Shown here in pieces: positions 3,310-46,741 of a stretch of 64,000 nucleotides of DNA (position 1 is its first letter; every line of letters begins with the position of its first letter). This stretch comes from a virus (Duplodnaviria; Caudoviricetes): the IMG/VR virus record IMGVR_UViG_3300027707_000013, positions 6,610 to 70,609 of that record; one strand, 5' to 3'. The notes below the pieces were generated by a model. That model saw only the letters and a list, made by a program, of their open reading frames with translations. It was not told where the DNA came from and searched no databases. A program made the position numbers and the translations under genes.

Positions 3310-4362
3310 TTAAGCTCTCATTGGCATTGTTTCTGAGATTGAATCCTCGGGATAATGTTCTCTTACAACCTCCCTTAATTGTATTACAACATCATGGTCA
3401 ATTTCTCTTTGTATTTGTTCCTCCATACCAAACATAACTTCACCCATGTATCGTGGAGTACGAACTTCCATCTCACCTATTTCCTCACCCATATCCATCA
3501 TTGTTTCAGGTTCAGCAATGTCACTCATTTTTTTAATGTTATAACCACATTCTGAAGTAACTTGGTTTTGAATCTCAGGTGAACACAATTCTTTATTTGT
3601 TTTATTGGAACTAAGAATTCTTCTAACAATAGGGAATAAATAATCGTCAGCATCCACATCTAAGTAATCAATTCTACGGTCTTCGGCATTCCAAAAACTT
3701 AACTCATCACCATCTCTTAACGATTTATACCCCGCAAATTTGTATCCAGTTACTTTGTTGATGAAGTAAACCAAGATTCCATATTGCCAATATTTCTCAA
3801 AGTATTGTTTTTCTTTTTGGTAAGTGGTACACCATCTTGTGGTTGCACCATACTTAGAAGACGCTTGGAATGTTAAAGGTCTAACCACTAACCATTTATC
3901 ATCTTCATATTCTTTAACTACCTGACCCTCAAGTTCTTTAGTTAATTCCTTAATACTCGCCAAAGTAATTGCAGCTCTTAAATCATCAATCGTTGAATAA
4001 GATGTGACATCTTTATTTTCAATCTGATTTTTTTCCATGTAACGAATAAAATCTTTCACCGTGAAAAAATTATCGTTATTAAAATAATCAGTACTATAGT
4101 GTAAATAATACAATTCGTTTTCTGTCAATCCATCGGTAGAAATCCCACGACTAAGTAGGTTTTCATGGATTTCTAATTTTGCAATATCCTTCTTTACCTT
4201 ATTGTTCTCGTATTGGTCTAAAATATTAAATCTTTTACCAAATACCTTACATAATAATGGAAAATATTTATAACTGCTTGAGGTGTCGATTCTTTTAAAT
4301 AAATCGAACATGGTCATGTTTAGTTCAGGGAACTGTTTTTTTAATTCATCTATTCGAGACAT
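3310..4362 (-). CDS. hypothetical protein with KYGxxTxWCxT motif
   Basis: 350 aa; motif shared with 44002..45492. Confidence 0.65.
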   Translation of the reverse strand: MSRIDELKKQFPELNMTMFDLFKRIDTSSSYKYFPLLCKVFGKRFNILDQYENNKVKKDIAKLEIHENLLSRGISTDGLTENELYYLHYSTDYFNNDNFFTVKDFIRYMEKNQIENKDVTSYSTIDDLRAAITLASIKELTKELEGQVVKEYEDDKWLVVRPLTFQASSKYGATTRWCTTYQKEKQYFEKYWQYGILVYFINKVTGYKFAGYKSLRDGDELSFWNAEDRRIDYLDVDADDYLFPIVRRILSSNKTNKELCSPEIQNQVTSECGYNIKKMSDIAEPETMMDMGEEIGEMEVRTPRYMGEVMFGMEEQIQREIDHDVVIQLREVVREHYPEDSISETMPMRA

Positions 4363-4450
4363 AAGTTCTAATGTTTTTTGTAATTTTAGGTAAATAAAAA
4401 ATGATAGTCAAAAAAAAAACATCCCGAATTTACGGGATGTTAATAACTTG

Positions 4451-4623
4451 AGGCTGTAGAGGATGGATTCGAACCACCACGAGGAGATTCAATTGATAAC
4501 ACAACGCTTGCAAGCTGGTGGTCTACCCCATATTATCAATCTATTTCTTGGTCCTCACCCCCGAGACAGGAGGGCTTGTATGCCACGGCCAGCATTACCT
4601 AAACCTATTCCAACACTCTACAG
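4451..4623 (-). ncRNA. oversized tRNA-Asp-like RNA (about 169 nt)
   Basis: Acceptor TGTAGAG/CTCTACA plus G73; T-arm GGTGG-TTCGAAT-CCATC; anticodon arm CCCTC-CTGTCTC-GGGGG; 39-nt D region; 79-nt variable region; terminator at 4418-4440. Confidence 0.7.
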
Positions 4624-4628
4624 TGTAA

Positions 4629-4841
4629 TTATTTTCCACCAAAATACTTCTCAATAACCTTTAATCTGTCTTCAGCGTCTACCAACATTTGTAACGCTTC
4701 TTCAGCGTTGCTGTAGAAGTCTTTAGTTGAGTGGTCACCGATACCAACAGCTCTGTTTCCCAAAAGGTCTAAAGTTAATAATGCTTTTGCTTTATCTGAC
4801 TCTGCAGATAGTTTCAACATGGTAATCAATTTTTCGTTCAT
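4629..4841 (-). CDS. conserved-looking phage hypothetical protein
   Basis: 70-aa ORF containing AVGIGDHS. Confidence 0.55.
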   Translation of the reverse strand: MNEKLITMLKLSAESDKAKALLTLDLLGNRAVGIGDHSTKDFYSNAEEALQMLVDAEDRLKVIEKYFGGK

Positions 4842-4896: not shown

Positions 4897-5322
4897 ATGA
4901 AAACAACTATTACTTTATTTTTAATTTTAGTTTGTTCCGTAGTCTACGGGCAAACCTCAGATGTGATGTATGTTCCAAACGATAAGAGTCTTGTTGTGAC
5001 ATATAACGACAACTACAGTGGTCTTGGATTTTATATGGGTGGTTATATCACCACATCGTTCCCACAACCATACATTTATACAACTCCTCAGTCAAGACTT
5101 AATCGTGCTGGAATAAGCCTTACTTGTAACAATAAGGTATCTGTTATGGGTGGAGTATTTTTTGAAAATTTTATGGACAACACCGAGTTCAAACCAGATG
5201 TTTGGGTTAAAGTTTATCCTCTAAGAATTCTATTAAATGTTGAAAGGGGTCCTGACTTTACTTTAGGGGTTAACTATATGAATGGAATTAATTATGGAGT
5301 AGGGTTATCAATTCCATTTTGA
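4897..5322 (+). CDS. secreted protein, probable small outer-membrane beta-barrel
   Basis: Signal peptide; terminal YGVGLSIPF beta-signal. Confidence 0.5.
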   Translation: MKTTITLFLILVCSVVYGQTSDVMYVPNDKSLVVTYNDNYSGLGFYMGGYITTSFPQPYIYTTPQSRLNRAGISLTCNNKVSVMGGVFFENFMDNTEFKPDVWVKVYPLRILLNVERGPDFTLGVNYMNGINYGVGLSIPF

Positions 5323-31047: not shown

Positions 31048-31120
31048 GGTCCCGTGGTTGAATGGTTACAATTCCACCCTGTCACGGTGCGAGATACGGG
31101 TTCGAATCCCGTCGGGACCG
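31048..31120 (+). tRNA. trnD: tRNA-Asp(GTC)
   Basis: GGTCCCG/CGGGACC acceptor; loop CTGTCAC. Confidence 0.95.
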
Positions 31121-31177
31121 CAAAGAGGGTTATATGTGTAGTAACCTCAGGTGTGATATCCGCCACTACACTCTTAA

Positions 31178-36865: not shown

Positions 36866-37127
36866 AAGGTTGATTGGAAAGCCTTACACCTTCTCTAAGG
36901 AGTTGGAATGTAAGCGAGGGGACTGAATGAAGTCGAAGAAATGCCAATCATAAAAGTAGATGTCCACGCACCCATCTTCTACTTTCCTTAAAATATTAGG
37001 TTGATTGGGGAATGATGATGTAAATACCTGGTAGTGGTTGGAATAAGACATCGTCGGAGTTTAAATTACCATTAGTAATGCCAATCATAAAAGGAGATGT
37101 CCACTGAACCATCTTCTCCTTTCCTTA
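36866..37127 (+). ncRNA. two tandem copies of an unassigned structured RNA motif
   Basis: Both copies read AGGTTGATTGG..GTTGGAAT..ATGCCAATCATAAAAG(T/G)AGATGTCCAC..CCATCTTCT(A/C)CTTTCCTT, with a compensatory T-A/G-C change. Confidence 0.65.
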
Positions 37128-46344: not shown

Positions 46345-46741
46345 TGGTGGAGATGGAGGGATTCGAACCCTCGTCTTGTTTACGAATAACGTAAGTGACT
46401 ACACGTTTATTATAACATTGGTTCTCAATGTTCCAAAATATCAGGTTTGATGTATGTGAGAACCCTACCTGCAAACAACTTGGTCTTAGAGTTATTTTAA
46501 ACGAGCTCTAACCTGTCACCCGTATGTTGGACTTCTGTTCCTGGGTGTATGTCCTAACCGACCCGAGTGTTGTTCCCTATCTTAGATAGTAACAACAGCT
46601 TCTTCTCTAGTTAAACCTAAAGCAGAAAGCTTAGCAAAAGTATTGCCATTTGATTGTTTTAAACCAGTTGATAACGGAGTTAATTCAGCTCCGACGTGCC
46701 ACCTAAGCAATTGCATACCAATCAATTACCGTGTCATCCCC
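46345..46741 (-). ncRNA. ssrA: transfer-messenger RNA
   Basis: GGGGATG/CATCTCC-A-CCA acceptor with G3.U70; T-arm; internal tag ORF at 46647-46582, (A)GNTFAKLSALGLTREEAVVTI*. Confidence 0.9.

Follow-up and report, generated by a model that had tools for sequence, protein, structure and literature searches.

The window, a stretch of 64,000 nt from a large lake phage (IMG/VR record IMGVR_UViG_3300027707_000013; 70.6 kb, estimated 23% complete), carried on its minus strand a gene for a tRNA-shaped RNA with a giant variable arm (Table 1). The gene lay directly behind a short ORF, and the hairpin of its own terminator began 12 nt after G73; the spacing of ORF, RNA and terminator indicated that the three probably form one transcription unit. 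The RNA started 5-8 nt past an ORF stop in many relatives too. Matches to the promoter consensus numbered 4, against 2.6 expected. The window also held 23 ordinary tRNA genes, including a tRNA-Asp at 31048-31121, and a tmRNA at 46345-46741 (ARAGORN and Rfam); the tRNA clusters began 25.6 kb from the giant-armed RNA. The initial annotation was thus right that this RNA has a terminator of its own, stands apart from the tRNA clusters and is accompanied by a separate normal tRNA-Asp at 31048. A tmRNA, which combines tRNA-Ala-like ends lacking an anticodon arm with a tag reading frame, was ruled out as an identity, as the RNA has a full anticodon arm and the tmRNA of the phage lies elsewhere.

Table 1. 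Features of the giant-armed RNA gene and its surroundings in the window.
Feature	Position	Strand	Evidence or detail
tRNA-shaped RNA body, tRNA positions 1-73, 169 nt	4454..4622	-	sequence and covariance model R1
Acceptor stem, 7 bp	4622-4616 (TGTAGAG) with 4461-4455 (CTCTACA, 3' strand)	-	5/8 helix-1 pairs changed on both sides
D region, 39 nt	4575..4613	-	D stem of 3 bp, 4613-4611 (TTG) with 4578-4576 (CAA); 32-nt D loop
Anticodon arm	4558..4574	-	5-bp stem, 4574-4570 with 4562-4558; 7-nt loop CTGTCTC, 4569-4563
Variable region, 79 nt	4479..4557	-	P1 4556-4553/4484-4481; P2 4548-4546/4487-4485; P3 4539-4531/4501-4493
T arm, GGTGG TTCGAAT CCATC	4462..4478	-	canonical; 3/5 pairs compensatory; GGTTCGA invariant
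Intrinsic terminator	4408..4441	-	9-bp hairpin 4441-4418, then T run; 1 found vs 0.4 expected in shuffles
Upstream 70-aa ORF, phrog_1811	4629..4841	-	stop codon ends 6 nt before RNA position 1
Sigma-70-like promoter match upstream of the ORF (TTGCCC, 18 nt, TAAAAT)	4924..4953	-	weak; consensus match alone
178-nt span with ends joined head to tail	4450..4627	-	one 208-nt contig, run X17, no mismatches

Reading of the minus strand confirmed the earlier description of a 169-nt tRNA-Asp-like RNA with a 79-nt variable region and a 39-nt D region. All elements of a cloverleaf were present, namely a 7-bp acceptor stem, a D stem, a 5-bp anticodon stem with a 7-nt loop and a T arm of the GTTCRA type. 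When searched with covariance model R1, the window copy scored 187.3 bits (E 1.7e-51) over 4453-4623. G73 fell at 4454 and C74 at 4453, and the C at 4623 (N-1) was able to pair with G73. U8 and G9 stood between the acceptor stem and the D region. The D loop was tRNA-Leu-like (GAATA ... GTGGCATA) and contained a 19-nt inserted hairpin at 4605-4587. In the anticodon loop, U33 was present, G34, U35 and C36 occupied 4567-4565, and U37 and C38 followed at 4564 and 4563. From its 4-bp base the arm ran through a 4-nt bulge, a second helix of 3 bp, the internal loop AATAGA/TTGAA and a 9-11-bp helix to a branched tip. In this tip, a hairpin bearing one bulged A (GGGG TAGA CC A CC, 4529-4517) was followed by the 10-nt palindrome GCTTGCAAGC (4515-4506). 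Several finer details had been drawn differently at first. The simple 5-bp GAGGA/TCCTC stem proposed for the base of the arm gave way to the 4-bp, bulge and 3-bp arrangement. The ATGC/GCAT hairpin suggested for the D region would consume the conserved GGCA (G18 G19) and was not retained in relatives; the hairpin consistent with the family was GG(T)TTAG/CTGGCC, within 4605-4587. The tip sequence GCTTGCAAGC is a perfect palindrome and therefore a poor hairpin. A link drawn between GTTGGAAT in the D region and a motif at 36866-37127 was at chance level, with 8 occurrences in the window versus 4 expected and 4/100 shuffles reaching 8.

Rfam searches (RF00005 included), whether run with the gathering score or relaxed to E up to 10, gave no credible family for the giant-armed RNA; matches to rimP, Yfr10 and the like covered the terminator alone. 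ARAGORN made no call on the native sequence or on three versions in which the inserts had been trimmed in silico, and blastn of 4300-4800 against GenBank phages returned no match. The family was found neither in Rfam 15 nor in the literature searched. It is therefore uncatalogued, and since current tRNA finders miss it, it goes unannotated.

The fold of the single sequence had a z-score of only -0.8, and the verdict that the structure exceeds chance came from comparison among relatives, not from folding energy. When a 20-mer from the arm tip was used as a search word, it occurred exactly in 96 IMG/VR contigs, which yielded 56 distinct full-length phage copies. In these copies 99.1% of the alignment cells formed standard pairs, and 24 of the 44 pairs showed changes on both sides, a number equalled in 0 of 500 shuffles; when partners were slid, pairing fell to 40-61%. 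Compensatory changes were seen in each varying helix, that is, in the acceptor, D, anticodon and T stems and in the three arm helices. The D stem covaried among AU (24), GC (24) and UA (6), 3/5 pairs of the anticodon stem were compensatory, and in the arm the proportions were 3/4 for P1, 2/3 for P2 and 6/9 for P3. Because all varying helices behaved in this way, both inserts represent selected structure and not decay. A decayed tRNA gene or a chance fold would agree with the missing ARAGORN and Rfam calls and with the z-score of -0.8, but this explanation was refuted by the covariation, by the conservation of the inserts and by the presence of the family in phages and bacteria alike, and we give it practically no weight. 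A search for homologs and covariation had been proposed in the initial annotation; run with a covariance model, it returned relatives in phages and Bacteroidota, compensatory changes and conserved inserts. The view of the RNA as a tRNA-scaffolded ncRNA, and not a decayed tRNA, was thereby strengthened, with additional backing from RNA-library contigs.

The insert in the D loop sat between AAAT(N) and GGCA. It consisted of hairpins of 8-27 nt that were unlike in sequence, self-complementary and placed at the same spot, and relatives free of it had an 11-nt D loop, AAATTGGCAAA, resembling that of tRNA-Leu. The palindrome GCTTGCAAGC was complete in 55/56 phage copies, a count to be read knowing that its first six bases belonged to the search word and the rest did not. 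RNAcofold predicted a dimer formed through GCTTGCAAGC at 16.1 kcal/mol below two monomers. Pairing of the CCACC of the tip with the GGTGG of the T stem showed no covariation where the T stem changed. The TGTCTC found in the D-loop insert of many relatives was considered as a second "anticodon" and rejected, being partly buried in a stem and absent from the window copy.

Covariance model R1 was built from the phage copies and defines the family of giant-armed tRNA-Asp-like RNAs. The window copy matched it over the full length and had U1-A72, G2-C71, G73, a YNGUCNC loop and a structured arm longer than 35 nt. When an exact arm-tip 21-mer was sought among 185,579 species genomes, one match was obtained. 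It fell in a Flavobacterium MAG, on a 12.6-kb contig probably of phage origin, and the phylum of this match, Bacteroidota, was the one sampled for bacterial relatives. Full-length R1 relatives were detected in 13/151 genomes sampled across Bacteroidota, or in 13-14/151 with a weaker further copy in genome G044; within one class, R1 relatives were found in 28/151 genomes. The bacterial arms measured 37-141 nt, and some genomes had tandem double copies. The best R1 matches from outside the family were ordinary tRNA-Leu and tRNA-Tyr genes, in agreement with the Leu-like D arm. Among the phages, the related G152 is complete at 256 kb, has terminal repeats and encodes a full set of tRNAs, tRNA-Asp among them; its copy of the giant-armed RNA lay about 8 kb from the tRNA array, just past an ORF stop and ahead of its own terminator; relatives often place the giant-armed RNA inside phage tRNA arrays. 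The family is both widespread and strongly conserved: some hundred lake phage contigs and about one in ten of the Bacteroidota sampled carry it. We regard it as practically certain that the window holds a genuine, selected RNA gene belonging to a large tRNA-derived family common to Bacteroidota and their phages.

Other stable-RNA genes were seen in the same place behind the ORF. At loci L010 and L014 (3219-3594), a tmRNA gene, and not the giant-armed RNA, filled the slot directly after the same 70-aa ORF. At L004-L006, the slot contained a tRNA-Ser(tga), and a conserved spacer about 90 nt long separated this tRNA gene from the giant-armed RNA that followed. Stable-RNA genes thus seem to be exchanged at the site behind the 70-aa ORF. 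The spacer between tRNA-Ser and the giant-armed RNA (L003-L006, ~3312-3400) contained GGAGTACGAGGAAC, which presumably recalls the sarcin-ricin loop motif of 23S rRNA. On one contig (L003 3390-3864, the same as L089 1-436), a stretch resembling the 5' end of the RNA (TTGTAAGATGGCAATT) was followed by an ORF and then by an intact RNA gene. This ORF gave a weak match to a SegE-type GIY-YIG endonuclease (E 3.7e-4, below cut-off), and a free-standing homing endonuclease may have been inserted beside the RNA gene.

The anticodon loop was compared across 97 copies (56 phage and 41 bacterial). U35, C36 and C38 were present in all 97 and G34 in 95, and the Asp set of GUC, C38 and G73 together with U37, noted earlier in the window copy, proved to be real and family-wide. 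U33 was kept in just 85/97 copies, and position 37 was U in 83, C in 9, G in 5 and A in none. By contrast, 185 distinct ordinary tRNAs from the same phage loci had U33 in 184 and a purine at 37 in all 185, a control that is partly circular in that these tRNAs were called by ARAGORN, which may itself favour U33 and purine 37. The window copy retained one of these decoding features (U33) and lacked the other. G73, C74, U1-A72 and G2-C71 were invariant or nearly so, the TG/CA acceptor ends being present in 40/41 bacterial copies. The identity set of E. coli AspRS comprises G73, G2-C71, G10, G34, U35, C36 and C38. All of these except G10 were near-invariant in the family; position 10 was U in the window copy and varied elsewhere. 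The kept positions therefore match AspRS identity better than decoding, G10 excepted, and the relaxed ones are those that the ribosome would need. The variation at position 10 argues against an Asp-charged non-decoder, as does a UUC anticodon in two tandem copies of one genome. Five bacterial copies had a fully canonical loop with G37, so some family members could decode.

All copies of the family (41/41 bacterial, 56/56 phage) encoded C74 without a full CCA. The same signature was found in 89 of the 94 ordinary tRNA genes checked (21/23 in the window, 26/27 in G152 and 42/44 in the bacterial loci), and the related phages G152 and G153 encode a short nucleotidyltransferase of the PolyA_pol/CCA-adding type. 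The shared signature and this enzyme fit maturation by a common tRNA route. An ordinary tRNA-Asp coexisted with the giant-armed RNA in the window, in G152 and in 13/13 bacterial carriers, showing that in each carrier checked it is never the sole Asp decoder.

In bacteria, an AsnC-like gene lay divergently upstream of the RNA in 28/36 loci. The best NCBIfam match of this regulator was AsnC at 161-170 bits, which is below the cut-off of 227 bits and far above other Lrp types. Close orthologues of the regulator (at least 51% identity) were confined to all the carriers plus one other sampled genome. AsnC-like genes that did not adjoin the RNA had unrelated neighbours (glycosyltransferase, sigma factor, transketolase). 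The pairing of RNA and regulator is the strongest functional clue obtained, and it links the RNA to amino-acid status.

Assembled contigs from four lake metatranscriptome runs covered the gene, which lends moderate support to transcription of the gene, as these are assembled contigs and such libraries may contain DNA. In run X17, the 208-nt contig joined 4627 to 4450 and so closed a circular path of 178 nt, overlapping by k-1 bases. Its word depth was 18.6, compared with 3 to 4.2 for neighbouring contigs of the same strain. The 5' end at this joint lay 5 nt ahead of position 1 and the 3' end 4 nt past G73; if real, they differ from the ends of a mature tRNA, which argues against a tRNA-processed, Asp-charged RNA; this junction comes from one run at the contig level and is the only end information available for the RNA. 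It could derive from a circular RNA, from template-switched head-to-tail cDNA of an abundant sharp-ended RNA, from a tandem DNA variant or from an assembly artefact. The phage RNA may thus exist also as a covalent circle or concatemer. RtcB ligase, as a source of circles, was not found in five related phage records. The same run had no contig over 4357-4449 or 4628-4636, and such gaps carry no weight; the high word depths of short contigs at 4552-4585 stem from a segment conserved among relatives and are a poor measure of expression.

The reading we prefer, and hold tentatively, is that of an RNA which is processed like a tRNA and probably charged with Asp, which is not a routine decoder, and whose arm lets it take hold of a partner or dimerise. 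The RNA would be transcribed behind the 70-aa ORF up to its own terminator, then excised and finished by the route of the ordinary phage tRNAs (RNase P, 3' trimming and CCA addition). Host AspRS would recognise it through G34, U35, C36, C38, G73 and G2-C71. Class II synthetases such as AspRS approach the tRNA from the variable-loop side, and the giant arm might hinder this enzyme. Once charged, the RNA would stay out of the routine decoding of GAY codons, which the normal tRNA-Asp covers in the phage and in every bacterial carrier; that tRNA-Asp, and a loop without the features that decoding needs, are the grounds for supposing so. The conserved 79-nt arm would hold a partner, and the palindromic tip of the phage copies may also self-pair into dimers; no partner of the arm was found. 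In bacteria, pairing with the AsnC-like regulator would link use of the RNA to amino-acid status, and the phage would bring its own copy along with its tRNA set. A fuller version of this idea, possible but rather unlikely as a whole, is a regulated non-decoding aspartyl-RNA that is charged by AspRS and left unused by the ribosome, with the giant arm recruiting a partner and phage copies pairing through the palindromic tip.

The main rival is an extra working tRNA-Asp isoacceptor with a long variable arm, charged by AspRS and reading GAC and GAU, perhaps under special conditions. The full cloverleaf, the tRNA-gene 3' signature, the GUC anticodon, the canonical T loop and the U33 of the window copy all agree with such a role, as do the frequent location of relatives in phage tRNA arrays and the canonical G37 loop of five bacterial copies. 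In addition, C36 pairs with a codon G, for which a purine at 37 matters less. We nevertheless consider it unlikely, given a pyrimidine at 37 in 92/97 copies and a non-U33 in 12/97 (0/185 and 1/185 in ordinary tRNAs), constant redundancy with a normal tRNA-Asp, arms of 37-141 nt that appear to be far beyond those of any tRNA known to function on the ribosome, and strong conservation of an arm that has no role in decoding. Retention of the anticodon loop motif with relaxed decoding features would suit instead a decoy that soaks up a host anticodon nuclease or another defence aimed at tRNA-Asp (the initial annotation had suggested a decoy for anticodon nucleases or synthetases), and the phage does carry the RNA on top of its normal tRNA-Asp. 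Phage tRNAs with altered loops evade tRNA-targeting defences. However, the bacterial copies are chromosomal genes whose partner is an amino-acid regulator, not a defence gene, and we know of no nuclease cutting tRNA-Asp in these hosts, which makes a decoy improbable.

The invariant U1-A72 and G73, as in tRNA-Asn, raise the idea of a carrier for asparagine synthesis, in which AspRS would load Asp and GatCAB, reading U1-A72, would amidate it to Asn off the ribosome under AsnC control. The adjacent AsnC-like regulator and the presence of GatB in 13/13 carriers speak for it. However, GatB occurred in 125/151 sampled genomes, so 13/13 would be expected by chance about 9% of the time; AsnRS was present in all carriers, the three class IIb synthetase genes were alike in carriers and non-carriers, and AsnA was rare throughout with no complementary pattern. 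Neither an AspRS-type nor an asparagine synthase gene was detected in the four related phage records searched, and we know of no way in which Asn carried by a non-decoding RNA could be put to use. The idea gained no support and is very improbable. Least likely among the functional readings is an RNA resembling the allo-tRNAs, charged with serine by SerRS on the strength of its long arm and G73 and acting as a missense or regulatory RNA, to which we attach hardly any probability. Beyond the arm and G73, it has on its side G2-C71, C11-G24 in most copies and the frequency of GUC among allo-tRNAs (PMC5389517). Against it, the acceptor/T branch is 7/5 and not 8/4 or 9/3, the anticodon is fixed where those of allo-tRNAs are diverse (PMC5389517), and the nearest ordinary tRNAs are Leu and Tyr, not Ser. 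A possible eighth acceptor pair, N-1/G73, was U-G or C-G in 55/56 copies.

Among known RNAs, class II tRNAs, above all tRNA-Leu (RF00005), came closest in sequence and shape. Like the giant-armed RNA, they have an L-shaped cloverleaf frame in which the D stem is 3 bp long, the D loop belongs to the AAATTGGCAGA type and an extra arm emerges from between the anticodon and T stems; their genes, too, encode C74 without CCA. Their arms are of about 13-21 nt, however, against 37-141 nt in the giant-armed family, which differs also in its Asp-type loop with pyrimidine 37, its G73 and U1-A72 and its optional D-loop hairpin, and the giant-armed RNA falls below the Rfam and ARAGORN thresholds. In phage context, a likeness is found in species 1 and 2 of T4 (rnaC, rnaD) and RNA1 and RNA2 of T5, stable RNAs of 120-145 nt that lie in phage tRNA regions and undergo tRNA-like processing; they are not known to have a full Asp-type anticodon arm or counterparts in bacteria. 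MALAT1 mascRNA and the plant virus TLS are tRNA-like structures at mRNA 3' ends, and they resemble the present case in that the RNA starts a few bases past an ORF stop, so that an RNase P cut would also make an mRNA 3' end. Many family members, however, belong to tRNA arrays or stand alone in bacterial genomes, and a 3'-UTR site does not define the family. The preferred reading, with its charged RNA held off routine decoding, is closest in working to Bacillus cereus tRNA-Other and the staphylococcal cell-wall tRNA-Gly, which are aminoacylated and kept from routine translation. For these two charging has been shown, where that of the giant-armed RNA is a prediction, and they have no giant arm, AsnC pairing or phage copies. 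tRNA-Other is cited in PMC5389517. The closest concept is that of the allo-tRNAs described by Mukai et al. (2017; PMC5389517). These tRNAs are irregular and long-armed, frequently have GUC, occur in bacteria and phages and were proposed to act in missense or regulatory roles. They differ in their 8/4 or 9/3 stems, arms of ordinary length, serine identity, diverse anticodons and occurrence in other phyla. Few tRNA-shaped RNAs act outside decoding, and every one of them has led to new biology, whether in cell-wall synthesis, antibiotic synthesis or stress signalling. Identifying the partner of the arm would reveal which needs of giant phages a full tRNA set leaves uncovered, and the giant arm itself probes how much cargo a tRNA frame can carry.

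Further unusual elements were observed in these phages. Two odd tRNA-like sequences were present in G152 (L230, 7859-8016 and 7720-7802), with R1 scores of 29.8 and 20.9 bits; one of them, of 158 nt, had a Leu-like D arm, a hairpin insert in the D loop and an irregular anticodon region. Phages of the G152 type seem to carry several kinds of tRNA look-alikes. On the plus strand of the window, between tRNA-Trp and tRNA-Tyr, two tandem structured elements were found at 36866-37127 with a spacing of 137 nt. Their 54-nt cores were 89% identical, with a compensatory change in a hairpin (AAAGTAGATG...CTACTTT vs AAAGGAGATG...CTCCTTT), and each copy began with AGGTTGATTGG; Rfam gave no match for them at E up to 1. 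A similar AGGTTGACTGGAAT element lay directly after the giant-armed RNA in many relatives (e.g., L084, L090 and L113).
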